Assembly (NCBI GenBank): GCA_049602735.1
Contig: JBMYRW010000002.1
Location: 3,760-67,759 of the forward strand
DNA length: 64,000 nucleotides
Reading direction: 5' to 3'
From: Thermoplasmatota archaeon
GTDB lineage: Archaea > Thermoplasmatota > E2 > JACPAO01 > JAHFTW01
The position numbers were made by a program, and so were the translations under genes. Below, in pieces: positions 27,652 through 64,000 of this stretch. The first letter of the stretch is position 1. Every line of letters starts with the position of its first letter. A model generated the notes under the pieces. It was given only the letters and a program-made list of their open reading frames with translations, was not told where the DNA came from and made no database searches.

Positions 27652-27733
27652 AGTGGTTGGGCCCAGGGCTGCCGCGCCGGGAGCCGCCCCTGTCGACCGT
27701 GCGTTTTTCAAACGCACCTTGGTCGCGCGGCCC

Positions 27734-28186: not shown

Positions 28187-28240
28187 GCCAATGTGCGTGC
28201 CAAAAGGACGATTAACCGAGGGCGCAATAGTGGAGTTGGC

Positions 28241-28483
28241 ATGGCGCAGTTGATGTCTCCCCGACAGATCGACCCTTCGGTGCTCCTTGAGTTTATCAGG
28301 CGCATGGGATACGACGTTGATGGTGAGTATATTACCAAAGAGGGTGGTCCCTACCACGATCCATGCACGGGCCTTCCCGTGAAATTCAACAAAATGATTA
28401 TCCTACAAGGTAGTGCGATTATTTTGGATGACAATCCAGTCAGCTTGGATTGGTACATGGACGAGTATCCGGGAACCCTTTAA
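28241..28483 (+). CDS. Hypothetical small protein (low-GC cassette, gene 1)
   Basis: ~80 aa from MAQLMSPRQIDPSVLLEFIRRMGYDVDGEY... No family recognised. Its stop abuts the next start. Confidence 0.45.
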   Translation: MAQLMSPRQIDPSVLLEFIRRMGYDVDGEYITKEGGPYHDPCTGLPVKFNKMIILQGSAIILDDNPVSLDWYMDEYPGTL

Positions 28484-29119: not shown

Positions 29120-29213
29120 GCGTCGCAGCCATGCGCAGCATTGCTGAACAAAGCTTACGGGCACCTGACCCCGTGCGATAACCCCTTCACCTTTCCCTCC
29201 AACTCTCTCTCCT

Positions 29214-30119: not shown

Positions 30120-30157
30120 CGCAGCCCCTCTTTAGCGGACGCCACGGTGCCGCCCGC

Positions 30158-38745: not shown

Positions 38746-38861
38746 GCTCTTCGATGGAGGGATGTTGGCGTTGTTCTTGGGGGTGTCTAACGGCTCTCGA
38801 AGGAACCTGCGGCGAGCGTAGCGAGGCGTCGGGTTGAGCGATTCGTTAGGAGGCGCCGCGG

Positions 38862-39599: not shown

Positions 39600-39606
39600 G
39601 TCTTAG

Positions 39607-41046
39607 CTAGGCCGGCACAGAGACTAAAGTCCGTTGTTTCGAGAACGCGGCCGGGACCGGAAGCCGGGCCAAGGTCTTGGATTGGAGGCGAAGGTGGCCC
39701 CCTGCCGCGCTCATGCAATGGCCTTCCAGCCAGGCTCGGGCCTTCTCCGAATTGAGATACTCGGCGAGCACCTCCAGTTGGTCCATGTCTTTGGGGATGA
39801 TGTAGTACACCGAATGCTTGGGCATGGAGCCCGTGCGGTCGATGTGGAAAACCGGAGTCCTCTGGATGTCCTGGACCACGATTTTGGGTCCTTCGAACTC
39901 CTTTGGGCGCGGTCGTTCGTGGTACTCATACCAGGCGCGGCTCCCCTTCGCGTGGCACGATCGCTTGACAAGCCGCTCGCGGTGGTGCGCCATGGCCAGG
40001 TACTCTGCCGCTGCGCCGAGAGAGGCCTCTGGCACAAGCCGTCCTGCGCCGTCGTAGGGGAACACCATCTGCGATCGGGGCTCGATGGCTTCGCCTTCAA
40101 CCGCCGGCAGATCACGACCGGACAACGCAGGCCGTACGTACTCCGCCGGAATCATGCGGGCTTCGTCTGGAGCCAGTTCGAAGACCGCGTCGGCTCCTGT
40201 GGCGACGCCTACACCGATCCGAGAGCAAACGTCGGCCAATGTCAGGACTCCTTCGTCAACGTCTGACTCCCCGAACAGGCAAAACCAGGGGGACTCGCAG
40301 AGGGATGCTTGCTCGACTGAACGGGACTCCCCCTTCCGCTCATCGTGGACCTGAACACGGTGCTTTGGACCGGGACGTTGGTTGAGTAGATGCGTGATCG
40401 CCGGGTACGTGACAAGGTCGGGGAATGCGTCTTCGGCCAGAATCACGACTCCGCGCAGCTCCCGTGTCGCAAGGAGCTTGCGTAGGCCACTTCCACTCCA
40501 GACCTGGGCGTACTTCTGGGGCGTGATGAAGCAGAGTTGACCCTCAGAAGCCAAGAGCCGCAATCCTTGTTCGAAGAACAGGAAGTAGAGGTCGTACCGG
40601 TTTACGGCGCTCTGGAATTGCCGGCGGTAGCGCCGGCGGTCAAGTTCAGCGAGCCCCTCCAAACGCACGTAGGGCGGGTTGCCGATGACCAAGTCGAAGC
40701 CGGCCTCCTCGAAGCGCGTGAAGTCGCACTCCACTACCAAACTGGCCAGGTCGGCATCGGTTGGCTGGAATCCATGCTCTGCCAGCACGTGCTGGGCCTG
40801 CTCGCGGCAGACTGACAACGGTTTGGGGTCCAACTCGACGCCGCGCACGCGCTCAACGACCCAACTCAAGGGGTGTCCGTGCGTCGCTGCGTAGCTGGCG
40901 TACTCTTCCAGGATTGGCAGGAAGAATGCACCTTCCCCGCAACCGGGGTCCAAGACGTACGCTCCACGTTCAGCCAGCTTTGGTAGGCTAGCCATCGCGA
41001 GCATCCGCTGGACAATCCCTGGTGGCGTCGGGTGCTGACCGATCAT
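39607..41046 (-). CDS. N6-adenine DNA methyltransferase (gamma-class, Eco57I/TaqI-like N6_Mtase)
   Basis: AdoMet motif I 'VLDPGCGEGAF' and catalytic motif IV 'VIGNPPYV' in gamma-class order. 479 aa. Confidence 0.85.
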   Translation of the reverse strand: MIGQHPTPPGIVQRMLAMASLPKLAERGAYVLDPGCGEGAFFLPILEEYASYAATHGHPLSWVVERVRGVELDPKPLSVCREQAQHVLAEHGFQPTDADLASLVVECDFTRFEEAGFDLVIGNPPYVRLEGLAELDRRRYRRQFQSAVNRYDLYFLFFEQGLRLLASEGQLCFITPQKYAQVWSGSGLRKLLATRELRGVVILAEDAFPDLVTYPAITHLLNQRPGPKHRVQVHDERKGESRSVEQASLCESPWFCLFGESDVDEGVLTLADVCSRIGVGVATGADAVFELAPDEARMIPAEYVRPALSGRDLPAVEGEAIEPRSQMVFPYDGAGRLVPEASLGAAAEYLAMAHHRERLVKRSCHAKGSRAWYEYHERPRPKEFEGPKIVVQDIQRTPVFHIDRTGSMPKHSVYYIIPKDMDQLEVLAEYLNSEKARAWLEGHCMSAAGGHLRLQSKTLARLPVPAAFSKQRTLVSVPA

Positions 41047-48505: not shown

Positions 48506-49567
48506 ATGGCGCGCCCCATCCTGATCGCGGCCCTTCTGATCGCCAGTGTGCTACCCAGTGCGCATGCCGACACACCCAGCGGGACCGTCGTGGCCACCGG
48601 CCACATCGACACCTTCCATCTGTCCCACTCCGACGATCTCGTCGATTTCTTGATCTTCACGTCGCAATGGCGCAATGAATGGCCGGACGACCCGGACACG
48701 GACTATTCGTTCTGGGCGAACGTCACCGACGGCATGTGGCTCGAGACGCACACCCACCCCGAGCCGCTCTTGGAAGACCCGTACGCGGCCGCCCCGTACG
48801 ATGTCGACATCGAGCTGTGGGGTGAGATCACGTGGACGGACGGCTTCAGCGGCAACACGTACGTCAGCGAAGACTGGATCAAGAGCTGCGACACCACCCT
48901 GGGCGACGTCTTCGAATGCGAAGCCAGCCGCGCCAGCCACGGCGACCACACCGAGACCTACGACTACGAGATCACCCACGCCCTCGTGATCGCGCGCCTC
49001 GGCACCGACCTGGACGTCACGCTCCTTTCCGTGCCAGAACCGACGCCCACGCCACCCCCGGGCCTGGAGGAAGTCAACGAGACCTACGCGCTGGTCTACG
49101 ACGCGTTCTATGATGAAGCCGGGCCCATCGTCAACGAGACCGGCCTGTTCGACCCCGAACCCTCGGAGCCGGAACCCAAGACGCACAATGGGACCATGAC
49201 AGCCGCGGAAGTGGCCGCCTTTTCGCTCATCCGCCTCGCCACAGGCAACGACGCGCCGTCCTGCGATGCCCGTATCGACGACATCCAGCCCGGCACAGGC
49301 TTCAACCTGACGAGCGCGCTGGGAGATGAATTTGATGTCAAATTCATTGAATTCGACGGCTTCGGCCTATCACACGTCTGGCATTTCCATGGCGACGGCG
49401 ATGACTGGGGCAACGTCCCGGCCGACGCCCAATACGCGTGCATCCAGTTCGAAGACGACGGCATCGGCGACGGCCTCTTCGGAGTCTACTCTTACACCGA
49501 CGGCCTTCCCGCGCGCGCCTCCAACGACCACACGCCGATCGATGAATACAACGTGATCCACCTCTAG
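48506..49567 (+). CDS. Secreted acidic hypothetical protein
   Basis: Signal peptide MARPILIAALLIASVLPSAHADTPSG. D/E/T-rich mature region. Confidence 0.65.
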   Translation: MARPILIAALLIASVLPSAHADTPSGTVVATGHIDTFHLSHSDDLVDFLIFTSQWRNEWPDDPDTDYSFWANVTDGMWLETHTHPEPLLEDPYAAAPYDVDIELWGEITWTDGFSGNTYVSEDWIKSCDTTLGDVFECEASRASHGDHTETYDYEITHALVIARLGTDLDVTLLSVPEPTPTPPPGLEEVNETYALVYDAFYDEAGPIVNETGLFDPEPSEPEPKTHNGTMTAAEVAAFSLIRLATGNDAPSCDARIDDIQPGTGFNLTSALGDEFDVKFIEFDGFGLSHVWHFHGDGDDWGNVPADAQYACIQFEDDGIGDGLFGVYSYTDGLPARASNDHTPIDEYNVIHL

Positions 49568-50419: not shown

Positions 50420-51106
50420 ATGCGCTGCGTCGCCCTGCTCTCAGGAGGCAAGGACTCTGTGGCGGCCATCGACGTCGCCCGCGGCCACGGCTGGGAGGTC
50501 CCCGTCGCCCTGTGCATCGTGCCCGCCGAGGACGACGCATGGATGTTCCACACACCCAACCTGGCCGTCGTGGACGCCGTCGCCCAAGCCCTGGACCTGG
50601 AGTTGGTCCGCGCGCCGTGCCGATCGGGCCCTGAAGAAGAGGTGGCCGACCTGGAAACCGCGCTCGCCCAGGTCAAGGAAGAGCACGATGTGGGCGCGGT
50701 CGTCTCCGGCGCCTTGGCCAGCGAATACCAACGCACCCGCATCGACGCCATCGGCCACCGCCTCGGCCTTGCGACCTTCGCGCCCCTGTGGCATGTCGAC
50801 CCGGACACCTACATGGACGGACTCGTGGCGGCCGGCTACGACATCCGCATCGCCCGCGCCGCCGCCGACGGACTCGACGAGACCTGGGCCGGCCGCCGGC
50901 TCGATGCCCAGGCACTCGCAGAGCTGCGGGCGAACCCGAGCCGGCCCCACATCGCCGGCGAAGGCGGCGAGTTCGAGACGCTGGTGCTGGACGGACCAGG
51001 CTACCAGAAGAGGATCGAAGTGGAAGAAGAAGAGGTGGAGGCGACCGCCAGCCGCTCCACGTGGCACGTCAAGCGGTGGCGGCTGTCTGCCGTCAGACGA
51101 TGTTGA
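50420..51106 (+). CDS. dph6: Diphthine-ammonia ligase (Dph6/MJ0570-like PP-loop ATPase)
   Basis: PP-loop 'ALLSGGKDS', and 'EGGEFETLVLDGP' C-terminal motif. GAGGA lies 5 nt before the ATG. Confidence 0.75.
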   Translation: MRCVALLSGGKDSVAAIDVARGHGWEVPVALCIVPAEDDAWMFHTPNLAVVDAVAQALDLELVRAPCRSGPEEEVADLETALAQVKEEHDVGAVVSGALASEYQRTRIDAIGHRLGLATFAPLWHVDPDTYMDGLVAAGYDIRIARAAADGLDETWAGRRLDAQALAELRANPSRPHIAGEGGEFETLVLDGPGYQKRIEVEEEEVEATASRSTWHVKRWRLSAVRRC

Positions 51107-52664
51107 TGGAGTAGACGTCGCTGTCGATCCCTTGGTTGCCTTCGAAGCTCACGGAGCCGCTGGCGCGGTACTTGCCGGCCAGCAGGGGAATCTCGGTGGG
51201 GACCTCAGCGACGCTCGGGAACACCTGCCAACAGCGGTTCAAGAACAGACGCGGCACCTCGAACTCGGCTTCGCCCAGGGCATCGGTCTGCTCGACGCTG
51301 CGCCAGCTGCGGCACGGCGTGTTCTCCAAGACGATGTTGACGGCGCCCGTGTTGCTCTGGTAGTCGACGTTCATGACGACATCCGCGTCCTCAATGGGGG
51401 TGCCGCTGAGGTACCGGACGTCCACGTCGATGACCGGCTGGCCGTAGAAGCGGTAGTAGCGCTGCGTCGCCTGGACGCGCACGTCCAGCTCATCCGTCAT
51501 GTCCACGCAGACGTCGTCGGTCGCCGTGAGGCCTTGACTGTCGTAGACGGTCAGCTCCAGGCATTGGGTGGCCAGGTCCGTGAACGAGCCGGTGTACGTG
51601 TCGGTCGTGCCGACGATGAGCCCCTCGTGGCGCCATTCATAGCTCGTGATGCCGCCGTCCTCCGGGTCGCTGCTGCCGCTGCCGTCGAAGGTCACGGATT
51701 CGCCGAGGTTGGCGAGCGTGTGGCTGGCGGAAGCCACCGCCGTGGGGGGCGTGTTGGCGTTGGGATCACTCGTACCGGCCTCGCAGCCACCCTCTGGGAC
51801 CGCTTCCAACACCATGTTGTCGAAGAACACAATGGAGTCGTACCACACGTCGTAGCGTTCATACAGGGAGAGCGTGAGCGTCTGGGGCACGCCGGGCTCG
51901 ACGGGGGTCTGGGCACGCAGGATCGGCGTGGCGTACCGGATGTGCTCGGGCGGCTGGTACCCGTACTCACCGTCCCTCCACGCCTGCTGGTTGCCCCAAG
52001 GCATGCCGGCCGTGGAGCCCAGCGCAGCAAAGCCGGTGGCATACTCGGAGATGGGATTGCCGTCGCCATCGACGGCGAAGTTGCCGGGCGCGTTCGTGCC
52101 TCCGAACTCCTCGAAGGAAAGCGGAGCCGGCCCCATTTGGGCGACGAAACCGTCCTCGAACCAGCGGCCATCAACGCCCTTGCGCCCGGGTTCTTCCTGG
52201 GTCACGAACTGGAAATCGAAGCGCAGGCAGTTGATGCCTGGCGCAGGCGTGAAATCGAAGGCGAGACGCGTCATGTCCTTGTCATCGACGGTCTCGTCAC
52301 CCTGCGTGGTGCCTCTGTACGAGCCGAGGAGCGACGGGAGCAGGATGTTCCCTAGCCCCCCGGTCGTCAACCAAGCAAAGCCCTCGCCGTGCAGGGGGAA
52401 CTCGCTGTACGGTCGCTCCGGGACGGCCGTCCCGTGCCCGTACCCCTGATAGCTCACGACGGCCGTCACCGAATCCAACGTCGTTGGATCGGCCGGCACG
52501 TGCTCCAACATGGAAGCCAGCGATGAGTCTCCGGACTGGAACGACGCTTGACCCAGCGGCGCCAAGGCAGCGGTCAGGAAAAGGACGGTGAGCGCCAAGG
52601 GCACGGCGCGGGCTCGAGCTTCCATGCTGGCCGCAGGCGACGTTTCTTTATTAACTAGGTACAA
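51093..52664 (-). CDS. Secreted protein with an N-terminal beta-sandwich (choice-of-anchor-like?) domain, a PKD domain and a C-terminal beta domain (paralog 1)
   Basis: Signal peptide. PKD signature 'VTFDGSGSSDPEDGGITSYEWRHEG'. About 70% identical over long stretches to 52721..54205. Confidence 0.8.
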   Translation of the reverse strand: MYLVNKETSPAASMEARARAVPLALTVLFLTAALAPLGQASFQSGDSSLASMLEHVPADPTTLDSVTAVVSYQGYGHGTAVPERPYSEFPLHGEGFAWLTTGGLGNILLPSLLGSYRGTTQGDETVDDKDMTRLAFDFTPAPGINCLRFDFQFVTQEEPGRKGVDGRWFEDGFVAQMGPAPLSFEEFGGTNAPGNFAVDGDGNPISEYATGFAALGSTAGMPWGNQQAWRDGEYGYQPPEHIRYATPILRAQTPVEPGVPQTLTLSLYERYDVWYDSIVFFDNMVLEAVPEGGCEAGTSDPNANTPPTAVASASHTLANLGESVTFDGSGSSDPEDGGITSYEWRHEGLIVGTTDTYTGSFTDLATQCLELTVYDSQGLTATDDVCVDMTDELDVRVQATQRYYRFYGQPVIDVDVRYLSGTPIEDADVVMNVDYQSNTGAVNIVLENTPCRSWRSVEQTDALGEAEFEVPRLFLNRCWQVFPSVAEVPTEIPLLAGKYRASGSVSFEGNQGIDSDVYSINIV

Positions 52665-52720
52665 CCAAAAGATGACGAACAGGAGAATGAAGGAAAAGGG
52701 ACGCCGTTCGGCGATCGTTG

Positions 52721-54205
52721 TTACAAGAGGGCGATGCCGTACCGGTCCGAGTCAGAGCCGCCGTTGCCGTCCTTGGCGACCGAGCCGACGGCGCGGTAGT
52801 CGCCGCCCGCGACCGGGAGCTGCGTCGGGACCTCGACGAGGCCGGGCAAGGCACCGAGGCAGCGCTCGACGACGAAGAACGGCACGTCGAACGAGGCGCG
52901 GCCGTTGCTGGCGGTGGTGCCGGAGGCGGACCAGTCGGGGCAAGGGGTCTGGCCGAGGATGCTGTTGACGGGCCCGATGTCGTTCGTGTAGGAGACGCTC
53001 AGGCCGACGGTGCCGCCGACCACGGGTTCACCGCTCTGGTAGAGCGCCTGCACGTGCACGCGCGGCTGCTGGTAGAACGCGTAGCTGTTGCGGCTGGCCC
53101 AGACGTCCACTTGCAGTTCGTCCGTGAGGTCCACGCAGACGGAGTCGACGCCGGTGGCTCCGAGGCTGTCGAAGACGGTGAGCTCCAGGCATTCCGTCGC
53201 CAGGTCGGCAAAGGAAGTGGCGTAGGTGGCCGCCGTGGAGACCAGGTTGCCGCCGTGGCGCCATTCATACGCAGAGACCGCGCCGTCCTCGGGGTCGCTG
53301 CTGGCGGTGCCGTCGAAGGTCACCGTCTCACCGAGGTTGGCCAGGGCATGGCTCGCCTGGGCCACGGCGGTCGGGGGTTCGTTGACGGCGATGACGCCAG
53401 GGTCGCAGCCCTCGGGGCCGGCGGCGCCGACGAACAGGTTGTCGATGAAGACCGTCGAGTCGTAGATGCTGTCGCCCTGGTCGAAGATCGACAGGAACAG
53501 GGTGTGGGCGCCCGGTCCCACGGGCGTCTGGGCACGCAGCAGGGCGCTGGCACCGTCATAGGAGGTGCCGGCGGCGTTGGCGGCGTTCATGGACGCGGCA
53601 CCGGCGGCGTTGATGCTGATCACGTCACCGTTCTCATCGAAGGCGAAGTTGTCCGGCGCCATGATGTCGCTGCCCATGGTCGTCCAGGTGGTGTCGTCCA
53701 GTTCGGCGATGAAGGCGTCATTGTAGTCCGTGCCCACCCATTCCGGGTATTCCTCCGAGAGGAAGCGGAAGTCGAAGCCGAGGCAGTCGCCGCCGACGGG
53801 CGTCGTGAAGCTGATGGCCAGGACGGTGACGTCCCAGTCCGTGTCGCCGCGGGCGTTGCCGCCGCCGAGTCCCACGCCGTCGCTGCCGGTGGTGCCGGTG
53901 GTGGCGAGCGCGGGGTCGCCGGTGGTCAAGATCGTGTACGTGTCGCCATCGACGGGGAAGCCGGCCAGGGGTTCGTCGCTGGTGGCATGGGGCATGCCGG
54001 ACGGCGGTAGCTCCAGGAACGTCGCGGCGGTCACGAGACCCAGTTGGGCCTCCATGGCGGCCACCAGGGCGTCAGGGTCAGCGGTCGGCGTCATGGCACC
54101 GTGGCCGGCAGGGGCCAACGCCAGGACGAGGGCGAGCGTCACGGAAACGGTCAGGGCGCGCCTCATGAGAATCAATCCACGCCGCTCGAAGTGGCGTCGA
54201 TTCAT
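52721..54205 (-). CDS. Secreted protein with an N-terminal beta-sandwich domain, a PKD domain and a C-terminal beta domain (paralog 2, tandem duplicate)
   Basis: Signal peptide. PKD signature 'VTFDGTASSDPEDGAVSAYEWRHGG'. Collinear similarity to paralog 1. Confidence 0.8.
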   Translation of the reverse strand: MNRRHFERRGLILMRRALTVSVTLALVLALAPAGHGAMTPTADPDALVAAMEAQLGLVTAATFLELPPSGMPHATSDEPLAGFPVDGDTYTILTTGDPALATTGTTGSDGVGLGGGNARGDTDWDVTVLAISFTTPVGGDCLGFDFRFLSEEYPEWVGTDYNDAFIAELDDTTWTTMGSDIMAPDNFAFDENGDVISINAAGAASMNAANAAGTSYDGASALLRAQTPVGPGAHTLFLSIFDQGDSIYDSTVFIDNLFVGAAGPEGCDPGVIAVNEPPTAVAQASHALANLGETVTFDGTASSDPEDGAVSAYEWRHGGNLVSTAATYATSFADLATECLELTVFDSLGATGVDSVCVDLTDELQVDVWASRNSYAFYQQPRVHVQALYQSGEPVVGGTVGLSVSYTNDIGPVNSILGQTPCPDWSASGTTASNGRASFDVPFFVVERCLGALPGLVEVPTQLPVAGGDYRAVGSVAKDGNGGSDSDRYGIALL

Positions 54206-54244
54206 GTAGCTTCGCCCTGTTGGAATTTCATCGACCCGGATTTT

Positions 54245-54688
54245 CTACAGATTACAGCGCAGATCGTGGACCTTGAAGCCCAGAGGCGCCAGGCGGGCCG
54301 CCACCAGGCTGCGATGGCAGGCGCCGGCGTCCGCTTCGAAGCAGACGAGGCAGACGCGTTCCTCCTGGGCGGTCCGCGCGAGGCCGGCCAGGGCCTCCGG
54401 CGCTCCGTCCAGCCGCGCCTCGAAGGCTGCAGCGAAGGTCTCCCACGACCCGCCGGCCTTGTACGGGTTGCGGATCTCCGGCGGTGCTCCCAGTCGCTTG
54501 CGGTTCTCGTAGGCGATGTCGGCGGCATCGAGATGCTCCGCCAGGACGTTCTTGCTGAACCCCTTCTTGCGGCTGAGTGGTCGCTCGCGGACATCGACGA
54601 CGCGTTGGATGCCGGCCGCCTGCAGCGTCGCCACGAACGCCGCCACGTCGGCCCCTTCGTAGCCCAGGGTCCAGATCGCCTTCTCCAC
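54245..54688 (-). CDS. DUF488-family protein
   Basis: Characteristic 'MEKAIWTLGYEG' N-terminus and the Cys/His cluster 'CLVCFEADAGACHR'. Confidence 0.85.
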   Translation of the reverse strand: MEKAIWTLGYEGADVAAFVATLQAAGIQRVVDVRERPLSRKKGFSKNVLAEHLDAADIAYENRKRLGAPPEIRNPYKAGGSWETFAAAFEARLDGAPEALAGLARTAQEERVCLVCFEADAGACHRSLVAARLAPLGFKVHDLRCNL

Positions 54689-54808
54689 GCGCAGCAGACG
54701 GCTGGCCGGGGCATGGGGATTGCGGCGCCCGCGCTTCCGATTCGTTCCAGCATTGAGCTAGATAGGTTGAAATGAGCATCCAGGGCTGACGACGCGGCTG
54801 GTCACTGT

Positions 54809-54829
54809 AGACGCACTGGTAACGCGTCT
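54809..54829. promoter_or_regulatory. Inverted repeat AGACGC-N9-GCGTCT in the divergent promoter region between the DUF488 gene and the giant surface-protein gene
   Basis: Read directly from the sequence, about 25-45 nt upstream of the 54855 start. Confidence 0.35.
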
Positions 54830-54854
54830 CCCTTGGCTCTACATACACTAGAGG

Positions 54855-57800
54855 TTGGTCTCGATGGCTGGAACATCCCTCCCCCTGCTCGCACGTCCCA
54901 AGACGCTCATTTCGCTGGTCCTGGTCCTTCTGATGGTGGCTCCCGCCTCCATCATCGGCGCCGTGAGCGCCCAAGAAGCGCCCGCCCCGGTCGAACCGAC
55001 GATCTCGGAGCTGCCCGACGCCGAACGCGAGGCGTTCGTCGACCTGTATCTCGACGTGTTCGTGAGGGGGGTCGTCCCCCTCAACGACACGCCCGGCGTG
55101 TACCCCGACTACACCGGCGAGCTACAACAAGAGCTCGCGGACGAGGTCCTGGAAGGCATGCGTGCCGACCCGACCTTCGCGCCCAACCTTGACCCCGTCA
55201 ACGCCGGCCCCGCGCTCGGCTTCTCCACCCCCGAAGACCCTCTGATCGACCGCGAGACCGGTGAACCCGTCACCCAGGACCGCGTCGACGACCTCTACCG
55301 CGCCTTCCTGCTCGGCCTCGTCTTCAACCGCGAGGTGTTCATCGACAACATCCAAGCGGTCGCCGAGGACACCATGTCCCCCGAGGACGCCGAGGCCCCC
55401 CCGGCCGACCCGGCCGGCACCAGTGAACAGGAGAACCCCATCCGCCGCGAGTTCTACGAAGAACCGCTGAAGCACTGGGGCAACACCGACCCCAACGCCA
55501 CCCAGCCGCCCTCCTTCGAAGGACTCGGCCCCGTGCTGCTCGAACAGCCCGGCATCCCCGAGGGCGTCACCTACAGCACCAACGTGGACGTCCCCGCGGC
55601 GCTCCGCGACCTCACGCCTGCCCAGGGACCAGCCACCCTGCCCATGGCGATGCCCACCGACCTCGTCCAGACCGTCGAACCCCCGCAGCTCACCGACCCC
55701 GAGCTGCTGGCCGAACCGTCCGACCTCGCCGCCGCCCTCCCGACCAGCCCCCTGGGCGCGGTGCCCGTGGACGCCTGGGACGACCCCAACTTCCAACTCC
55801 GTCTGCCCCCGCTCCTTGAGTTCCTGCGTGACCTTGCCAACCTCGCCACGCACGAGCTCTTCGAACTGATGGGCATCCTCGTCGACGACGCGGCCATCCC
55901 GGCCAAGATCAGCGGCAACCTGCAGCAGGTGGCCCCTGAGGTCTACGAGCACATCCTCGACCTCGATGTCACGGCGGCCGAGTTCGCCGGCAAGCTGGAG
56001 TCCCTCCTGCGCCCGGCCACCATCGTCGCCGACACCAATGCCCTGCCCGAAGACCTGGAAGCGCTGGTCGCCTCCCTCCTCGAACGGGCCAATGAACTGC
56101 AGTACGCCGGCACCGTCAACGGCGTCGACTTCGAAGGCACCTGGGGCATCCCGGAAGCCATCGACATCGACAGCGACGGCCTGGCCGACCTGCTCGTCCA
56201 GCTCACCCTCAGCCCGGCGGTCGTGCCCATCGAGGACGGCCTGCTGGAGATGCGCCCCCACCTCATCGTGGAGCGCACCAACGGCGTGTGGGCCCTCGAT
56301 GCCCTCGACGACCTGCCGGCCCTCCCGGGCGCACCCTTCCCGGTGCCCATGCCGGCCTCGACGCAATTGGCCGGCGCCCCGCTCACCGGCGAGCAGCTGC
56401 TCGTGGCCGGTGTGGCCACCAGCGTCCCCGCGCCTCTGCAACCGTTCCTCCCCAGCGGCAGTGCCTTCCCGTACGACATGACGGTGGCCTTCCCGCTGGC
56501 CGACACGGACGCCGTGGCGGTCTTCGACGCCCACTTCCCCGGCGGCGCTGACCACTTCGAAGCGATCCTCGAGGACCTTGGGCCCTCCGTGCAGATCGCC
56601 ACGACCGGGTCCCCGGGCGCCTTCGAGTTCCTGGCTTCCATCCTGCACGAGGGTGCCCCCGGTGGCGACACGTCCACCCTGTCCCTCGCCGGTGACCAGG
56701 CCCCCGAACTGCTGGGCGCTGCGGCCGCCATCAACGCCGCCGCCGGCACCAGCATGCTCGACCTGACGCCCCTGCTGCCCATGGACCTGGAGGTCGGGCT
56801 GCTGCGCGACGGCCCTGCCGGTCGCCTCGCCCTGGCCGCCAGCAGCCAAGAGATGCCCCCCACGACCATCGTGAACGAGGGCGCCGACCTCGCCATCGAG
56901 ACCGTCGAAGGGGCCAACCTCGCCATCGCGCGCCAGGACTTCCTCTCTGACGACACCTTCGACCACGCGGGCCTTGTCCTTGGCAACGCCGCTGCCCAGA
57001 TCGACGCCACGCTCACCGAAGCCGGCTTCGACATCGGCCTCGACGAACGCGGCGCCGACGTGCACGCCATCGCGGGCCTGGTCGACGACGGTGACTACGA
57101 GCACGCCACCTGGGCGTTCATCGAGAACGCCGGGTACGGCATCGCCATCGACACCTCCGCCGGTGGCCTCACCTTTGACAGTGACAGCCACGTGGACGAC
57201 CTGCGTGCCGTGCGCGCCAAGACGGCCGCTGCGGCCCTCATGGGCACCGTGAGCGGCTTCAAGGTCACCGACGAGCTGACCGCCTTCGGCATGCCCGGCG
57301 CCCAAGAAGCCAGCGTCGTCCCCCAGGACGGCGGCTTCGACATCCAGAGCCTCACCGACCGCGACGTGCCCTTCCTGCTGGACATCGAACAGACCACGGC
57401 CCGCGGCCTGGAGGCGGAGCGCTTCAGCTTCTCCAACCTGCCCGGCTCCCTGGCGGTGGATGTCCGCGACGGTAGCATCAACGTCGGTGGCAACTCCCCG
57501 ATCGACCTGGTGACCGGCCAGCTGTCCCGTCCCCTCGACGGCGCCGGCATGGACCCCACCAAGGGCTTCGTCGTCCTCGATGACCTCAACGGCCAGGCCT
57601 CCGTGGCCATGGACGAAGCCAACGTGAACGTCCAGGCCAGCGGCGACCTCGCCTCCGGTAACGTGCTCGCCTCCAACGTCATCGACGGCGTGGGCGACCC
57701 GCAGTTCATCGCCATCCCCGGCAACCACATGCTGGCCGACGTGGTCGGCACCGCCCGCCAGTACTCGGCCCAGGTGACCGGCATGGCCAGCCTCGGCGAA

Positions 57801-60800
57801 GGGCTGGGCGGCCTGATCAGCGGCCTCGCGGGCGGCCTGGGCGGCATCGCCCTGGAGTTGGCCCTCGACGGCCCCCTCTGCTGGAGCTTCGGTAAGGACG
57901 GCAACAAGCTGGAGATGTGTGTCAGCAACGTCCCGGACCGCCTCGAGATCGACCTGAACCTGGTGCCCAACCCGTCGCTGACCTACAGCGCCAGCGAAGA
58001 GATCGACGAGATCACCATCAACCTGCAGGCGCCCCAGGTGGACATCCTGTTCTTCGTGCACGGCCTCCCCGAGACCGTCACGATGGAGTTCACGCGCGCC
58101 GGCATGGACCTCATCATGAGCGACCGCATCGACGCCATCGGCATGATCGCGGAGCTCGCCGACACGACGATTACCGCCATCGCCGAATCGATCCCCTCCG
58201 AGCTCCACTTCGGTTGGGACAACGGCGGCATGGACCCCGGCATCCCCGCCGGTGACGCCATCGGCCGCGTCTACGCCGCTGTGAGCCGCCCCGGCTTCAG
58301 CTTCTTCGTGGACATCGAGCACCTGCCCCCTGTCCAGTTCGCTTGGAGTGACGGCAGCCTCGACCTGGACATGAGCGGCGACAAGATCGGCTCCATCGAG
58401 ATGCAGCTGCTGCTCAACCCCGCCGGCAACCCCGCCGGACGCCTGCAGCTGCTCGCCTTGGCAGAGGAGATCCCCGGCGTCCACGCCAACTGGGACCCCT
58501 TGGGCGGCGAGTTCGGCACCGACGGCAGCCTCGGCGGCATCACGCTCAAGATCGTGCTCGGCCCCACGGCAGCGCCCTCGTTGACCATGATCTTCGAGAT
58601 CCTCGATGTGCCCCAGATCGATGGGGCCTCCTGGGAGGACGGCCGTTTCGACCTGCCCCTGGTGGGTGGTCGCATCGGCAGCGTCACCTTCCAGTTCATC
58701 GCCGGAGACATGGACCTGTTCCTGCAGGCGCTCGGTGTGCCTGGCCTCTCGGCCCAATGGGACGACGCAGGCGGTTCCTTGTCTTCGGACGGGCCTCTTG
58801 ACAAGATCACGGCGTACTTTGCCAAGGGCACCAGCGCCCCGAGTATGAGCATCTTCTTCGAGATCGAGGACGTGCCTCAGCTCAACGGCATCACCTGGGG
58901 CGACGGCATCGACATGGACTTCTCGGGCGGTCGCATCGGTCGTATCGCGTTCCAGTTCGTCAGTGACCAGCTCTTCGACTCGGATGACATCGTGTTCTTC
59001 CTGGAAGCGTTGGGTCTGCCCGGGTTCAACATCGACATGAATGCCAAGACGGTGAGCACGACGGGCGTCCTGGACAGTCTGCTCATCTTCCTGCGCCGCG
59101 GTCCTGCACTTGATCCGACCCTGTTCGCCAGCCTGGAACTGGAGGGCGTGCCGGCCATCAACGCGGGCGCGTGGGACGAAGGCCTTGGCCTCGGGTTCAG
59201 CCCCGTCGATGCCCGCATCGACCGCATCAACTTCCTGTTCCTGAGCAACCCCGCCGGCACCGCCAGCGACCTCCTGTTGGACGTCACGGCGCTCGGTCTT
59301 CCTGGTATCTCTTTGGACACGACGACCGGCACGATCAGCACGACCAACGTGCTGGACCTGATCTCCCTGGACTTCCGCCTCGGCGACCTGCTGGACCCCA
59401 CGCTCCTGATGCTCTTCGAGCTGGAGGGCGTGCCCAAGATCGTGGCGGGTCTGTACGGCGAGGACGAGTTCAGTCTTGGCTTCTCGCCGGCCTCGGACAC
59501 CATCGACCGCCTGGAGCTCCTGTTCCAGGTGCGCACGCCGTCCACGCCCATCGAGAACGAACTGCAGATCCACCTGCTGGCCCACGGCCTGCCCGGCATC
59601 GTGCTCGGCTTCGAGGACCGCGCCGGCACCATCGGCACCAGCGCCACGTTGGACGACCTGCTGCTGCACTTCCACTTTGGTCCCCGCGGCACGCCGCTCA
59701 TCGAGACCAACCTGCTGCTGGACACGGTGCCTCAGATCACCGCCGGCGGTTGGACCGATGGCAGCTTCGACCTCGACCTGGCCGGCCGCATCGACCAGAT
59801 CCTCCTGGAGTTCATCCTGAACCCTGACGGCCTGGACGCGGTGCCCACGGATGCCAACGACCTGTACCTGATCCTCAACGCCGAAGGCGTGCCCGGCATC
59901 GACGTCGGCTTCGTCAACGGCGGCGGCACGATCGGCACCGACGACACCCTGGACCTCATCGACCTGCGGGCCATCCTTGGCCCCCGCAGCGGCCTCACGC
60001 TCACCGGCGAAGGCCTGAGCCTGCAGCTGACCATCGAAGGTGTTCCCGCCGTCACCGGCAGCTGGGACGACGAAGGCTTCGACCTGGGCCTCGCCGGCCG
60101 CATCGATGAGATCCTCCTGGAGTTCATCGTCGACCAGGCTGGCAGCGCCACGGACCTGTTCCTGCGCGCCTTCGCCCAAGGCATCCCCGGCATCGACCTG
60201 GGCTTCACCGACGGCGGCGGCACGATAGGCACCACCGGCACCTTGGACCTCCTGGACGTGCGCGCCATCCTGGGTGCCCGCAGCGGCCTGAACCTGGCCG
60301 GCACCGGCCTGTTCGCACGCCTGACGGCCACCAGCGTCCCCATGATCACCGCCGGTGCCTGGGATGACGCCAGCATGAACCTGGACCTGTCCGGCAAGAT
60401 CGGCGGTCTCACGCTGGAGTTCTTCGTCAACGAGGCGCTCAACGCCAACGACATCTACCTCCTGCTGGACGCCTCCGGCATCCCGACGCTGTCCTTCGCC
60501 AAGAGCGACACGGGCTTCGGTCTGGAGACGCCCGACGGGCTCGATTACGTCTCCCTGATCTTCCGCAAGGGTGTCTTCAACTACGACCCCCACGCGTACG
60601 GCCCCACCTTCGTGGGCGCCTGGATCCGCCCCGACGGTGTCGGCACCTCCTGGCCTGGCAACCCGCAGTTCGCGGTGTCGGCCAAGGTCAGCGGCATCAA
60701 GGAAGTGGTCTGGAGCACCAACGACGCCACGGAATCCCAGTCGCTGGACCTCGAGTTCACCGGCCTGCGGGACATCCGGGCCATCGTCGACCTGGAGACG

Positions 60801-62621
60801 GCGGCGTTCCTCGCCGAAGCCGACCTGAGCCTGACGAACCTGCCCGCAGACGTCTCGCTGGACATCACGCCCGACGTGGTGGGCTTCGCGAGCGCCAACG
60901 GCTGCGTCGGCTTCTCCTGCCTGGCCAAGACCCCTTGGCTACAAGGTAAGGTCAACGTGGGCACCCGTGGCGCCGCCAACGCCATGCCGGAGCCGTTCTG
61001 GCCCTGGCAGACCGTCAGCGAGCCGGGCTCCTTGTGCCCCCGCAACGCCGGCTTCGGGACCTACAACTCGCCCTGTGGCATCATGGGCAACACGTTCATC
61101 GACGTGCAGGACGGCGGCTTCGCGTCCAAGTGGAAGCTCGACCTGCCGCTGCCGGACGCCATCTCGTTCACCAAGAGCGCCGGTGACGGTGTGCCGACGT
61201 ACAGCCTGAACACGGGCTCCGTCAAGGTGGGCAAGCTGGACATCCGTGTCAACACGGAACTGCCCCTGCCCATCTACCCCCACGAGCTCAACCTCATGGC
61301 GGTGGCGACCGTGAGCAACCTGCCCACGAGCCTCTCGGTGGTGCAGGGCATGGGCAACGCGGCCGAAGGTGGCAAGCCGACGATCAACGTCAACACGGGT
61401 CAGCCCATCGACAAGATCTTCGTCGGCCTCCGTCTCGATGGCTCCTGGTACCATGACCCTGGACTCATCACCGTGAGCAACTCCAACATCAACGACAACG
61501 GGTTCCCGATCTGGCTGATGGTGGAGGATGTGCCCACGACGGTGAGCCTGTCCACCGGCAAGTCCAGCTACCAGACGTCCAACTGTCAGAGCTGCAACCC
61601 GCCGGTGCCGTTCATCAACTACAACGCGGCCAGCAACACGCTGGACGCCATGGTGTACACCAACATCGGCGACCTGTGGGGTCTCATCTCCCGCGCGGCC
61701 ATCGACCTCGCCGGCGATGTGATCCCGGACTGGCTCGAGGGCCTGGCCAACTACGACAGCCAGGGCCACCTGCTCATCCAGGCGGTCGACATCCCGTCCG
61801 ACGGCATCGCCCTCTTCAAGTCGGGCAACTCGTTCCACGTGGATGCCAGCCCCATCCTGAACCAGCGCCTCACGAAGTTCTTCGTGGACTTCCAGCTCAA
61901 GTTCAGCGACGGTGACGGCCGGCCCAGCTCCTGCATCATCTGCCTGGGCATCGCCGACCTGAAGTACTACTGGCACTACAGTTGGTGGTTCGGCATCGAG
62001 ACCCTGAGCCTCCTGTTGGAGGACCTGGGCAGCGTCGGCATCGACCCGGGCATCGAGAGCATCGTCAACATTGACGGGCGGTTGGTGTTCCACTTCCGTG
62101 CCGGTGCCGGCTTCGACTTCGGTGCCGGTCTGGAGTTCTACGTGGCCGGCATCCGGTTCTTGTGCGTCTGCATCGAGAGTCCGACGATCAGCTTGATCCT
62201 CGATCCAGGCTTCATCTCGTTCGAGGTGTTGTCCTGGAGTTGTTGTCAGTTCGATTACTTCTGGATCGGTTCACCGTTCCATGGAACAGGCTACTATTGG
62301 GCGCCAAGAGGTCACTTCTGTCTCTGTGACTGGCACTGGTACGCCAAGCTCGGCGGCACCTACCCCGGCAACTGGGGTTTCGACCTGCCCATCGCGATCC
62401 CACCGATCGTTCCGTTCCGCGGTCTGGATATCGCGTACGGAACGCATCACGTGTTCATGAATCCAAGACTGCTGCTCTGTGCGGGCGGTGATTGGCGTGA
62501 ACCAGAAGTGGTCTGCGTCTCCTTGGGACGACTGTACCCGACCGAGTTCATCGTGGTCTACGCGATGCTGCGTTACTTCAGCATCAGCATCTCCACGGGG
62601 AGCGAGCACCACCACCATTAG
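54855..62621 (+). CDS. Giant secreted cell-surface protein (2588 aa): signal peptide, ~1050-aa acidic N-terminal region, at least 8 tandem ~95-aa repeats, and a ~240-aa aromatic/Cys-rich C-terminal module ending in HHHH
   Basis: Uninterrupted ORF with protein-like, acidic composition throughout. Signal peptide LISLVLVLLMVAPASIIGAVSAQEAP. The opposite-strand 1823-aa ORF is antisense-type. A GGAGG Shine-Dalgarno for the next gene overlaps the stop. Confidence 0.9.
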   Translation: MVSMAGTSLPLLARPKTLISLVLVLLMVAPASIIGAVSAQEAPAPVEPTISELPDAEREAFVDLYLDVFVRGVVPLNDTPGVYPDYTGELQQELADEVLEGMRADPTFAPNLDPVNAGPALGFSTPEDPLIDRETGEPVTQDRVDDLYRAFLLGLVFNREVFIDNIQAVAEDTMSPEDAEAPPADPAGTSEQENPIRREFYEEPLKHWGNTDPNATQPPSFEGLGPVLLEQPGIPEGVTYSTNVDVPAALRDLTPAQGPATLPMAMPTDLVQTVEPPQLTDPELLAEPSDLAAALPTSPLGAVPVDAWDDPNFQLRLPPLLEFLRDLANLATHELFELMGILVDDAAIPAKISGNLQQVAPEVYEHILDLDVTAAEFAGKLESLLRPATIVADTNALPEDLEALVASLLERANELQYAGTVNGVDFEGTWGIPEAIDIDSDGLADLLVQLTLSPAVVPIEDGLLEMRPHLIVERTNGVWALDALDDLPALPGAPFPVPMPASTQLAGAPLTGEQLLVAGVATSVPAPLQPFLPSGSAFPYDMTVAFPLADTDAVAVFDAHFPGGADHFEAILEDLGPSVQIATTGSPGAFEFLASILHEGAPGGDTSTLSLAGDQAPELLGAAAAINAAAGTSMLDLTPLLPMDLEVGLLRDGPAGRLALAASSQEMPPTTIVNEGADLAIETVEGANLAIARQDFLSDDTFDHAGLVLGNAAAQIDATLTEAGFDIGLDERGADVHAIAGLVDDGDYEHATWAFIENAGYGIAIDTSAGGLTFDSDSHVDDLRAVRAKTAAAALMGTVSGFKVTDELTAFGMPGAQEASVVPQDGGFDIQSLTDRDVPFLLDIEQTTARGLEAERFSFSNLPGSLAVDVRDGSINVGGNSPIDLVTGQLSRPLDGAGMDPTKGFVVLDDLNGQASVAMDEANVNVQASGDLASGNVLASNVIDGVGDPQFIAIPGNHMLADVVGTARQYSAQVTGMASLGEGLGGLISGLAGGLGGIALELALDGPLCWSFGKDGNKLEMCVSNVPDRLEIDLNLVPNPSLTYSASEEIDEITINLQAPQVDILFFVHGLPETVTMEFTRAGMDLIMSDRIDAIGMIAELADTTITAIAESIPSELHFGWDNGGMDPGIPAGDAIGRVYAAVSRPGFSFFVDIEHLPPVQFAWSDGSLDLDMSGDKIGSIEMQLLLNPAGNPAGRLQLLALAEEIPGVHANWDPLGGEFGTDGSLGGITLKIVLGPTAAPSLTMIFEILDVPQIDGASWEDGRFDLPLVGGRIGSVTFQFIAGDMDLFLQALGVPGLSAQWDDAGGSLSSDGPLDKITAYFAKGTSAPSMSIFFEIEDVPQLNGITWGDGIDMDFSGGRIGRIAFQFVSDQLFDSDDIVFFLEALGLPGFNIDMNAKTVSTTGVLDSLLIFLRRGPALDPTLFASLELEGVPAINAGAWDEGLGLGFSPVDARIDRINFLFLSNPAGTASDLLLDVTALGLPGISLDTTTGTISTTNVLDLISLDFRLGDLLDPTLLMLFELEGVPKIVAGLYGEDEFSLGFSPASDTIDRLELLFQVRTPSTPIENELQIHLLAHGLPGIVLGFEDRAGTIGTSATLDDLLLHFHFGPRGTPLIETNLLLDTVPQITAGGWTDGSFDLDLAGRIDQILLEFILNPDGLDAVPTDANDLYLILNAEGVPGIDVGFVNGGGTIGTDDTLDLIDLRAILGPRSGLTLTGEGLSLQLTIEGVPAVTGSWDDEGFDLGLAGRIDEILLEFIVDQAGSATDLFLRAFAQGIPGIDLGFTDGGGTIGTTGTLDLLDVRAILGARSGLNLAGTGLFARLTATSVPMITAGAWDDASMNLDLSGKIGGLTLEFFVNEALNANDIYLLLDASGIPTLSFAKSDTGFGLETPDGLDYVSLIFRKGVFNYDPHAYGPTFVGAWIRPDGVGTSWPGNPQFAVSAKVSGIKEVVWSTNDATESQSLDLEFTGLRDIRAIVDLETAAFLAEADLSLTNLPADVSLDITPDVVGFASANGCVGFSCLAKTPWLQGKVNVGTRGAANAMPEPFWPWQTVSEPGSLCPRNAGFGTYNSPCGIMGNTFIDVQDGGFASKWKLDLPLPDAISFTKSAGDGVPTYSLNTGSVKVGKLDIRVNTELPLPIYPHELNLMAVATVSNLPTSLSVVQGMGNAAEGGKPTINVNTGQPIDKIFVGLRLDGSWYHDPGLITVSNSNINDNGFPIWLMVEDVPTTVSLSTGKSSYQTSNCQSCNPPVPFINYNAASNTLDAMVYTNIGDLWGLISRAAIDLAGDVIPDWLEGLANYDSQGHLLIQAVDIPSDGIALFKSGNSFHVDASPILNQRLTKFFVDFQLKFSDGDGRPSSCIICLGIADLKYYWHYSWWFGIETLSLLLEDLGSVGIDPGIESIVNIDGRLVFHFRAGAGFDFGAGLEFYVAGIRFLCVCIESPTISLILDPGFISFEVLSWSCCQFDYFWIGSPFHGTGYYWAPRGHFCLCDWHWYAKLGGTYPGNWGFDLPIAIPPIVPFRGLDIAYGTHHVFMNPRLLLCAGGDWREPEVVCVSLGRLYPTEFIVVYAMLRYFSISISTGSEHHHH
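58090..60600 (+). repeat. In-frame coding tandem repeats (period ~280-300 nt, i.e. ~93-100 aa; 8 clear plus ~2 degenerate units) within the giant gene
   Basis: Recurring units of the form 'hLxALG(V/L/I)PG(I/L)..(W)DD.GG.(I/L)..DG.LD.I.L.F..G.........(F/L)E(I/L)(E/D)(G)VP.I.(A)G.W.DG.FDL.L.GRI(D/G).I.(F/L)(Q/E)F'. The (V/L/I)PG anchor recurs near 58735, 59015, 59300, 59590, 59890, 60185 and 60480. Confidence 0.75.
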
Positions 62622-62625
62622 GAGG
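62621..62625 (+). promoter_or_regulatory. Shine-Dalgarno-like GGAGG, 8 nt upstream of the ATG at 62634
   Basis: 'cattaGGAGGaaccaacgATG' read directly from the sequence. Confidence 0.5.
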
Positions 62626-62633
62626 AACCAACG

Positions 62634-64000
62634 ATGACCCACGACAAACTCAACAAGAAGACCCCGCAGACGATCGCCGCCCTCGCCATGGCCTTCGCCC
62701 TGGTGATGGCGCCTGGGCTGGCCAGCGGCGCGCCCCTGGCCGGCGTACCCGGCGTGTTCGAGGTCGGCACGATCGATGCCCCCGGCGAATCAGGTGATTC
62801 AGGGGGGACAAGCAGCGAAACGGGGCCCTTCAACTCGGAGAGCTCGTCCGATTCGACCACGTGCATCATCCCCTGGTTCAGTGGCTGTCTCTTCGAGTTC
62901 ACGGAGCACGAAGAGGAGCAGCACGACCACTACGATTCGGAGTCCACGTACTTCGAGTGGGCGACCAACGACACGCGCAACGGCTACTATGTCAGCGTGC
63001 TCGACGGCGTCTTCTGGACCCGTGTCGCCAGCGGTGACTACGAGCACGAGGAGTCCTCCGGCGCTGACGCCGAGGGCAGCCACTACGACCGGGAGTACTA
63101 CGGCAACAACCTGGGCTTCTCCACGGAGAGCATCGAGGAGAGCGACTACTTCCTGGACAACGACTACGCCAGCTACGAGTCTGTCTCTCAGACGACGGCT
63201 GACGCCGGCTTCGATGCGGGCGCTGCTGGCGCCAGCGTCGGCCTGGACCGCCAACAGAACGGCCAGGAAGGCTCGTCCACGTCTGAGGAGTCCAACAGCT
63301 CCGAGCGCGAGGAGTTCAACCTGTTCGGCATCCCGATCCATGAATCGGGTGCTTCGGAGAGCCACAGCCTGGAGGAGGAGTACCAGCGCTACTGGAACGA
63401 GACGAGCCTCCAGTCGACCATCTTCATCGTCAACCCGGTGGACAACACCACGGTCAACATCGTGGGCCTGAGCCTGTCCAAGGGTGACGAAGAGGAGTCC
63501 GGCAGCTCCCAGGGCAGCGACTCGTCGTCGTCCTACACGGACGTGCTGGGCTTCAACGTCGTCGGCCAGGAAGACGAGTCGGACCACGATTCGTCCTTCT
63601 ACCGCTACAACGAGTGGCTGGACCTGACGGTGGACGTCATCGACGGCACCCTTCAGGGCAGCGTGCTCTACGAGCATGGCAACGAGGAGTCGGAGAGCTT
63701 CGAGCACGAGCGCAGCGTCACGGAAGTGGTCGGCCTGCCGTTTGGCAGCGAATCCACGGAGGACCAGGAATCGAGTTCCTCCTGGCGCCGTGCCACGATC
63801 GCCATCGACGCTGCTGAGGATGCTGGCTCCGTCGTGGTCTCCCATTGGAACGAAGATTCCGAGAGCGAGAGTCAGACGGAGGACGACACGATCGTCATCA
63901 TCCCGATCGGCAGCACGGGCGAGGAGGAATCCGAGCACCACTCCGACGGCTACGGCTTCGGCATCGAGCTGGGCGACGGCGAGGTGCTGTGGCTCACCGG
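62634..64000 (+). CDS. Secreted, extremely acidic Ser/Glu/Asp-rich protein (N-terminal 455 aa only; runs off the right window edge)
   Basis: Manual translation. Signal peptide MTHDKLNKKTPQTIAALAMAFALVMAPGLASGAP, then an S/E/D/Y-rich sequence with no stops to the window end. Not in the ORF track because there is no in-window stop. The listed ORFs 62776..63471(+) and 62799..63941(-) have spurious composition. Confidence 0.8.
   Translation, partial: MTHDKLNKKTPQTIAALAMAFALVMAPGLASGAPLAGVPGVFEVGTIDAPGESGDSGGTSSETGPFNSESSSDSTTCIIPWFSGCLFEFTEHEEEQHDHYDSESTYFEWATNDTRNGYYVSVLDGVFWTRVASGDYEHEESSGADAEGSHYDREYYGNNLGFSTESIEESDYFLDNDYASYESVSQTTADAGFDAGAAGASVGLDRQQNGQEGSSTSEESNSSEREEFNLFGIPIHESGASESHSLEEEYQRYWNETSLQSTIFIVNPVDNTTVNIVGLSLSKGDEEESGSSQGSDSSSSYTDVLGFNVVGQEDESDHDSSFYRYNEWLDLTVDVIDGTLQGSVLYEHGNEESESFEHERSVTEVVGLPFGSESTEDQESSSSWRRATIAIDAAEDAGSVVVSHWNEDSESESQTEDDTIVIIPIGSTGEEESEHHSDGYGFGIELGDGEVLWLT

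Follow-up and report, generated by a model that had tools for sequence, protein, structure and literature searches.

Organization of the Locus

The stretch of DNA analyzed here (64,000 nucleotides of contig JBMYRW010000002.1 from the metagenome-assembled genome (MAG) of a Thermoplasmatota archaeon, hereafter the window) has a guanine plus cytosine (GC) content of ~68%, encodes the archaeal marker TiaS, and ends in a locus at which an earlier note had proposed a five-gene cell-surface cassette, comprising two secreted PKD-domain paralogs (PKD-A and PKD-B), a DUF488 protein, a giant secreted repeat protein, and a highly acidic secreted protein encoded immediately downstream of the giant (hereafter the partner). 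Every open reading frame (ORF) cited in that note is present in the sequence, and the genes and associated features are collected in Table 1. The Logan contig L001 carries the same sequence as the window and reaches 10 kb past its end, covering the remainder of the partner gene and the genes that follow it. When the locus is compared with its relatives, the functional unit that is strongly supported at the sequence level is a two-gene operon, consisting of the giant followed by the acidic partner, which form a two-gene core.

Table 1. Features of the Giant/Partner Locus (Window Positions Unless a Contig Is Named)
Feature	Position	Strand	Description
PKD-A	51093–52625	–	510 aa; PF22352, 29.7 bits; outside the conserved unit
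PKD-B	52721–54205	–	494 aa; choice-of-anchor L, PKD-like and C-terminal domains, secreted; outside the conserved unit
DUF488 protein	54245–54688	–	147 aa; PF04343, 95.9 bits; divergent neighbor of the giant, outside the conserved unit
Inverted repeat AGACGC-N9-GCGTCT	54809–54829		DUF488/giant intergenic region; chance level
Giant secreted protein	54864–62621	+	2585 aa, isoelectric point (pI) ~4.05; first gene of the conserved pair
Giant signal peptide (predicted, Sec-type)	54864–54971	+	aa 1–36; hydrophobic core ISLVLVLLMVAPASIIGAV
Giant repeat region	58059–60572	+	aa 1066–1903; nine tandem ~92–105-aa β-rich units, from an iterated hidden Markov model (HMM)
Giant conserved C-terminal region	60573–62618	+	aa 1904–2585; Trp-rich, Cys pairs, ends HHHH
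AGGAGG Shine–Dalgarno-like motif	62620–62625	+	overlaps the TAG stop codon of the giant; 8 nt before the partner ATG
Acidic partner	62634–64000, continuing past the window	+	first 455 of 923 aa in the window; full gene at L001 16287–19058

Conservation and Co-Duplication of the Giant/Partner Pair

The loci carrying homologs of the pair were numbered L001–L014, of which L001–L005 and L010–L014 (~10) are independent, with L006–L009 repeating the same places. At all ~10 independent loci, the giant gene is followed by an adjacent and co-oriented partner gene (12 of 12 pair junctions), on contigs with GC contents of 60–71%, and the gap between the two genes is 4–27 nt (12 nt in the window). The Shine–Dalgarno sequence previously reported to couple the two genes is confirmed in the window (AGGAGG at 62620–62625, 8 nt before the partner ATG at 62634), and most of the 12 homologous junctions have a GGAGG-like motif closely upstream of the start codon of the partner gene.

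The pair is also found in multiple copies: L002 and L003 each carry two complete tandem pairs as well as a third giant, and L005 and L010 together represent a single sand MAG with at least three giants. When pairwise identities are tabulated for the giant C-terminus and for the partner, the two matrices are congruent (r = 0.96), with a-type and b-type orthologous pairs visible. The two genes have thus been passed on and duplicated together, down to ~30% identity. In contrast, no homologs of the PKD, choice-of-anchor L, or DUF488 proteins are found within 10 kb of the pair at any of the other loci. The comparison of synteny therefore retains the giant/partner part of the proposed cassette, which is kept at all loci, and leaves the five-gene version as a whole unsupported, because the PKD paralogs and DUF488 are absent elsewhere.

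At those loci where the upstream side of the giant can be seen, it is occupied by another giant/partner pair in L002 and L003, the ~390-aa lipoprotein gene trailing the preceding pair in the case of the second giant of L005, and an HhH-GPD gene in L012. We note in addition a gene for a GT-C glycosyltransferase (PMT_2/STT3-like, with multiple transmembrane (TM) segments), located on the minus strand in L004 (65–1483) and L011 (475–1932), where it is directly upstream of, and divergent from, short giants of 1861–1863 aa. The two glycosyltransferases are 67% identical to each other, and this enzyme may glycosylate the products of the pair.

Architecture of the Giant Protein

The giant is an exact match to its counterpart on L001 and to the NCBI record [quoted passage not shown]. 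Its Kyte–Doolittle hydrophobicity reaches its maximum of 2.59 at aa 16–34, within the signal peptide, for which a putative cleavage site was read by eye between VSA and QE, and an N-terminal hydrophobic segment is found in all homologs of both the giant and the partner. The giant itself lacks a membrane anchor. Hydrophobicity values above 2 are found only in the signal peptide, with weaker internal segments at 1.6–1.7, and the C-terminus carries no terminal TM segment and matches no NCBIfam sorting-signal model. Similarly, neither a PGF-CTERM-type signal nor a lipobox is found on the giant, with LAGC-type lipoboxes being present only in two neighboring lipoproteins (described below).

The N-terminal region contains conserved blocks at aa 51–150 and 900–1150, and is followed by nine tandem units of 92–105 aa (aa 1066–1903), which were delimited by an iterated HMM and align with each other. 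By eye, each unit looks like two related halves of ~45 aa (G-V-P-x-I...W-x-D-G-x-F-D-L...G-R-I-x-x-I-x-L-x-F). With this HMM, individual giant homologs are seen to contain 2, 7, 9, or at least 12 units, and the homologs range in size from 1861 to more than 3370 aa, mostly because the number of repeats varies. The possibility that these repeats are PKD domains was considered and rejected, as the two are unrelated (hhalign probability of 0.08%).

Conservation of the giant is among its highest in the C-terminal ~680 aa, which are 61–69% identical between paralogs. The giant contains 18 Cys residues, arranged as nine close pairs that include CxxC, CxC, and CC motifs; eight of these pairs (16 of the 18 residues) are located in the C-terminal region, with CxxC, CxC, CC, and CxC pairs in the last 230 aa, while the ninth is found at aa 1006/1019. 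The protein ends in a natural His tag (...STGSEHHHH, 62607–62618), and an H-x-H(H) terminus is found in 10 of 11 homologs. This His-rich tip, together with the Cys pairs, suggests either a metal site or unusual local disulfides. N-x-S/T sequons are depleted in the giant, with 2 observed compared to an expected 10.4 ± 3.1.

Searches of Pfam and NCBIfam with the whole giant and partner, with the giant in thirds, and with the repeat consensus (E up to 10) returned only a chance match to LRR_6, and profiles of the giant and the partner found no match among PDB sequences. An AlphaFold2 (AF2) model of the last 862 aa of the giant, built from a four-sequence alignment, is all-β with a predicted local distance difference test (pLDDT) score of 37, and a Foldseek search with this model found nothing (TM-scores ≤0.16).

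Architecture of the Acidic Partner

At its full length of 923 aa, the partner consists of a signal peptide, an acidic ectodomain extending to ~aa 680, a set of hydrophobic helices, and a tail of ~130 aa. It had previously been described as essentially a polymer of Ser, Glu, Asp, and Tyr, which is not what the sequence contains: these four residues make up 39.6% of the part in the window (S 14.9%, E 13.0%, with K and R together at 3.1%), only 6 of the 903 20-aa windows across the protein are of low entropy, and ~56 positions, many of them Gly, aromatic, or Cys, are invariant across 14 partner homologs. The partner is indeed acidic, as also claimed, but this property is not specific to it, with the other exported proteins of the locus having pI values of 4.05–4.5.

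The ectodomain is rich in S, E, G, and D, and is built from weak, degenerate β repeats of ~60–75 aa, in which short alternating hydrophobic strands such as [IVL]xG[IVL]P[IFL]G lie between long S/E/D loops. The alternating hydrophobic stretches span 5–7 residues per strand, and are flanked by these long acidic loops. The partner further carries a conserved Cys pair (C77 and C85) and two invariant sequons (N255 and N460). The AF2 model of the partner (five-sequence alignment) has a pLDDT of only 34 overall and is essentially all-β before the helical region, with ~12 long antiparallel strands at aa 425–678, where pLDDT values are 50–79.

The ectodomain is followed by conserved hydrophobic helices at aa ~687–705 and ~737–782 (region ~685–790), with the motifs ATWCVDPGVPLP and CFW.TVP.EARNPQ, and the segments at aa 687–705 and 737–755 score 1.75–2.35 in every homolog listed. 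In one homolog, the 3782-aa protein P0012 from farmland soil (L012), the partner domain continues at its C-terminal end into ~2900 aa of fused Big_3_5 and FG-GAP_2 repeats. As these repeats are of an extracellular type, the region after the hydrophobic segments of the partner faces the outside.

Rarity and Distribution of the Pair

Both proteins are exceedingly rare. A word-index search of 5.8 × 10^9 protein clusters returned four proteins for the giant (itself and three homologs) and four homologs for the partner. An exhaustive HMM search of 1.84 × 10^9 representatives, using the profile of the partner, recovered a total of nine proteins, and querying the word index with the giant alignment added no new members. 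In a scan of 185,579 species genomes, the partner was found in four MAGs, all of them labeled as Thermoplasmatota, of which three are from beach sand and one is from soil. Across all data, the pair is found in beach-sand MAGs, one soil MAG, and a farmland-soil metagenome. Two scans of JGI metagenomes and one viral scan found no relatives of the pair, and thus a viral or mobile origin is not indicated.

The suggestion that the locus is previously undescribed holds for the giant/partner pair, in which each protein carries the annotation "hypothetical" and is without a match in Pfam or NCBIfam. Since no relative of either protein can be detected in Pfam, NCBIfam, or the PDB, the two constitute new protein families, and the novelty of the locus is in these two orphan families and their obligate pairing, rather than in the PKD/DUF488 neighborhood.

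Proposed Role of the Pair

Thermoplasmatota cell envelopes range from wall-less to covered by a surface layer (S-layer). In the mechanism that we propose, both products are exported through Sec-type signal peptides. The giant is a three-part molecule, with a conserved N-terminal region of ~1050 aa, a stalk of a variable number of ~95-aa repeats, and a strongly conserved, Trp-rich C-terminal region with Cys pairs and a His-rich tip. The partner presents a very acidic ectodomain of degenerate β-hairpin repeats. Its hydrophobic helices come next, and form a hairpin that is most likely inserted in the cytoplasmic membrane such that both ends of the hairpin are outside. The partner could then hold the giant at the cell surface, possibly via the conserved C-terminal domain of the giant, and the outcome would be a variable-length fiber or coat element on these particle-associated sand and soil Thermoplasmatota. 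On balance, and with moderate confidence, we lean toward a partner that is the membrane-bound base holding the giant, with the two together forming a surface fiber or coat element that has a role in attachment or in the envelope.

Several points weigh against this interpretation, and should be taken into account. The depletion of sequons in the giant is unusual for an archaeal surface protein. The first hydrophobic helix of the partner contains two conserved Asp residues and has an uninterrupted hydrophobic core of only ~13 residues, such that the hydrophobic segments could instead be part of a helical domain in which they are buried, and not span the membrane. The accessory genes vary among subclades, leaving any wider module unfixed, and a fold assignment is impossible for either protein because of the low pLDDT values of the AF2 models (34 and 37). 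Finally, the physical interaction, the membrane anchoring, and the function as a surface fiber are all inferred from sequence.

We also considered whether the pair could be a two-component S-layer analogue, in which the giant would form the outer canopy of a regular lattice and the partner its membrane-anchored stalk, as is the case for SlaA and SlaB. This follows the logic of slaA–slaB in that a large, β-rich, secreted protein without an anchor is combined with a smaller anchored partner; both proteins here carry export signals, the partner has hydrophobic helices, and the pair is kept across the clade. However, single MAGs encode several paralogous pairs with 7, 9, and at least 12 repeats, and fibers of differing length therefore fit these data better than a single lattice. 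Furthermore, the giant is depleted in sequons, whereas SlaA and SlaB are glycoproteins (PMC10903991), there is no sequence match to solved S-layer proteins, and the putative anchor is a hairpin followed by a tail, rather than a coiled coil with a single TM helix. We thus consider a lattice of this type unlikely.

Should the membrane-based fiber interpretation be correct, a 10-kb block of "hypothetical" genes would become an annotatable module, consisting of a variable-length fiber and an acidic membrane base. The pair is probably a main surface feature of this uncultured sand and soil lineage of Thermoplasmatota, and is a good candidate for an envelope or adhesion system that is specific to this lineage, its function being putative.

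PKD Paralogs, DUF488, and the Intergenic Inverted Repeat

The cassette as originally conceived would unite all five genes (the two PKD paralogs, DUF488, the giant, and the acidic protein) in one surface structure with a shared divergent regulatory region. The five genes do lie next to one another, signal-like N-termini are present on four of their products, and the 175-nt DUF488/giant intergenic region does contain a small inverted repeat. We nevertheless consider this arrangement very improbable as a functional unit, given the absence of homologs of the three additional genes within 10 kb of the pair elsewhere, the lack of a signal peptide on DUF488, the chance-level and unconserved nature of the inverted repeat, and the fact that the repeats of the giant are unrelated to PKD domains. 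The PKD/choice-of-anchor L paralogs and DUF488 are chance neighbors of the pair, and synteny reduces a plausible five-gene story to two genes.

PKD-A and PKD-B are arranged in tandem, as proposed, and each has an N-terminal hydrophobic signal-like segment. Their reported identity of ~70% applies, however, only to the DNA (69% over ~516 nt), with the proteins being 42% identical overall (33% in the N halves and 53% in the C halves; BLASTP E = 9e-102). PKD-A passes the gathering threshold of PF22352 (29.7 vs 27 bits), and PKD-B scores slightly under the cut-off on the PKD models PF18911/PF22352 (24.7 and 23.5 bits), although the half concerned is the one in which it shares 53% identity with PKD-A. 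A choice-of-anchor L domain is present in PKD-B (NF038133, 68.8 bits vs a cut-off of 27), with PF26766 (Choice_anch_L) also precomputed for its product, while PKD-A gives no direct match to choice-of-anchor L, its N half being 33% identical to that of PKD-B. Thus, PKD-B, and PKD-A by homology, are ordinary members of the secreted choice-of-anchor L/PKD proteins, with a signal peptide, choice-of-anchor L, and PKD-like domains, but have no recognizable C-terminal sorting signal and no conserved linkage to the giant/partner pair. Neither paralog contains an N-x-S/T sequon.

The DUF488 gene encodes a full-length PF04343 domain (95.9 vs 22.2 bits; subclade DUF488-N3a, 39.7 bits), which is an intracellular domain family. 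The protein has no N-terminal hydrophobic segment or signal peptide, and its product is cytoplasmic. It is this gene, and not a PKD gene as had been stated, that is directly divergent from the giant. The inverted repeat, which had been taken to mark a shared regulatory region, exists, with 6-bp arms and a 9-nt loop, but it is at chance level, with eight inverted pairs as large as this, itself included, present in 301 nt. Moreover, alignment of the regions upstream of the homologous giants shows neither a conserved motif nor a conserved inverted repeat.

Barrel Resemblance of the Partner and Other Alternatives

A further scenario is that the partner is β-barrel-like and serves as a pore or platform for translocating or assembling the giant, in analogy to two-partner secretion (TPS), autotransporter, or usher systems. 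The partner has a composition rich in Gly, Tyr, Asp, and Ser, AF2 predicts the series of long antiparallel strands described above, and in Foldseek the partner model matches almost nothing but outer-membrane β-barrels, including BrkA and CymA (probability 0.95–0.96), FimD, PapC, EspP, and BamA. However, this resemblance comes from a low-confidence model, with TM-scores ≤0.33 and root-mean-square deviations of 12–17 Å, and we treat it as an unconfirmed hint. The hydrophobic stretches of 5–7 residues are too short for a membrane-spanning barrel, no POTRA, Omp85, TPS, or usher domains are found in Pfam or NCBIfam (E up to 10), a second membrane in this lineage is without support, and the giant already has a Sec signal of its own. 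An export pair of this kind is therefore highly unlikely. Marginally more doubtful still is a specific version of it, in which the partner would be a barrel-like assembly or translocation platform that is tethered to the cytoplasmic membrane by its helical hairpin, as an archaeal two-partner or usher analogue exporting a giant fiber; if true, such a platform would mean that this clade of Thermoplasmatota has an outer barrier or an envelope protein that forms a barrel.

Contact-dependent inhibition and Rhs-type loci commonly show tandem paralogy, and the giant is secreted and has tandem paralogs; however, a competition system in which the giant is a polymorphic toxin and the partner its cognate or immunity protein is the least credible of the scenarios considered, as the C-terminal region of the giant is among its most conserved parts and not the most variable, no Rhs/YD, toxin, or immunity domains are found in Pfam or NCBIfam, and the partner is a large, exported protein rather than a small cytoplasmic immunity protein.

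Probable Accessory Genes Beyond the Window

Directly past the end of the window, on the minus strand of L001 (19088–21750), are genes for two lipoproteins with LAGC-type lipoboxes, which overlap by 4 nt. The first is a 502-aa FG-GAP β-propeller that recurs in L005, and the second is a protein of 385 aa that recurs beside the pairs in L002, L003, and L005 at 39–42% identity, and that has no match in the PDB, Pfam, or NCBIfam. In light of the P0012 fusion, the FG-GAP modules, which are encoded by a separate lipoprotein gene in L001 and L005, are tied to the partner. The FG-GAP lipoprotein and the ~385-aa lipoprotein are likely accessory parts in one subclade. We also observe that in L012 (10001–31349), P0012 is followed by two more very large β-helix (NosD/SIBA-E_N) proteins, giving a surface-protein island of more than 20 kb.

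Other Features of the Window

A lower-GC patch at 37561–41046 (0.62, compared to ~0.68) carries, all on the minus strand, genes for an AlkZ-like DNA glycosylase (37561–38745), an XhoI-family restriction endonuclease (38862–39599), and an Eco57I/TaqI_C-type N6 methylase (39607–41046). The patch probably represents a type II restriction-modification island that was acquired. The GC content of the window is lowest at 27650–30000 (0.599 at 28–30 kb), near two ORFs without a Pfam match (27650–28357 on the minus strand and 28484–29119 on the plus strand), which are followed at 29214–30781 by genes for an α/β hydrolase (with a weak PETase-like match) and a glutathione S-transferase. A further secreted, very acidic protein of 353 aa (48706–49567; L001 2159–3220, plus strand), which has a pI of 4.05 and a signal peptide and is not matched by any Pfam or NCBIfam model, is encoded ~1.5 kb beyond PKD-A, with CN-hydrolase and Diphthami_syn_2 genes in between. 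The ORFs at 54202–54753 (minus strand) and 62776–63471 (plus strand) were rejected as genes, being Arg-rich alternative-frame artifacts of high-GC DNA. Scanning the window for Rfam families and tRNAs returned no hits.

Comparison with Known Systems

Two-partner secretion systems (TpsA/TpsB) likewise place the gene for a giant exoprotein beside that for a β-rich partner of ~900 aa, and the low-confidence model of the partner resembles the outer-membrane barrels of autotransporters and ushers in Foldseek. The pair differs from these systems in having no TPS, POTRA, or Omp85 domains and no strands with hydrophobic faces of membrane length. Its host is an archaeon with no known outer membrane, and the hydrophobic segments of the partner are α-helical.

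The giant repeat adhesins of bacteria (RTX/LapA-type and Bap-type) are very large, acidic, and secreted, with conserved end domains and a tandem-repeat spacer, the length of which is set by the copy number of the repeats, and the giant shares all of these traits. However, RTX, Ig-like/BIg, and cadherin repeats and a LapG/LapD-type retention module are not found in the pair, and the loci contain no RTX repeats and no type I secretion system (T1SS) or HlyD/ABC-exporter genes, with the giant having an N-terminal signal peptide instead. Export here would thus use a Sec signal peptide, and retention would use the co-encoded partner.

In the SlaA/SlaB S-layer of Sulfolobales (PMC10903991; PMC6911244), SlaA is 1424 aa in length, while SlaB is 475 aa with a C-terminal TM helix (PMC10903991). 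Both are glycoproteins, with 14 predicted N-glycosylation sites in SlaB (PMC10903991), and SlaA had virtually no homology to structurally characterized proteins (PMC10903991). The present pair has no sequence or profile similarity to either protein (Pfam, NCBIfam, and PDB profile searches). The giant, with its stalk of variable tandem repeats, is nearly double the size of SlaA, and the partner, a repeat-built and extremely acidic protein, is twice as large as SlaB. Instead of the coiled coil and single TM helix of SlaB, the hydrophobic segments of the partner are followed by ~130 residues (~2900 in P0012), and the pair is found in several paralogous copies per genome with few N-glycosylation sequons. 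Despite these differences, both systems consist of two exported proteins, of which the large one is β-rich with a signal peptide and no anchor, and the smaller one combines an N-terminal β ectodomain with a C-terminal helical part that is membrane-associated in SlaB and would be so in the partner. By this analogy, SlaA/SlaB appears to be the closest functional counterpart to the giant/partner pair.

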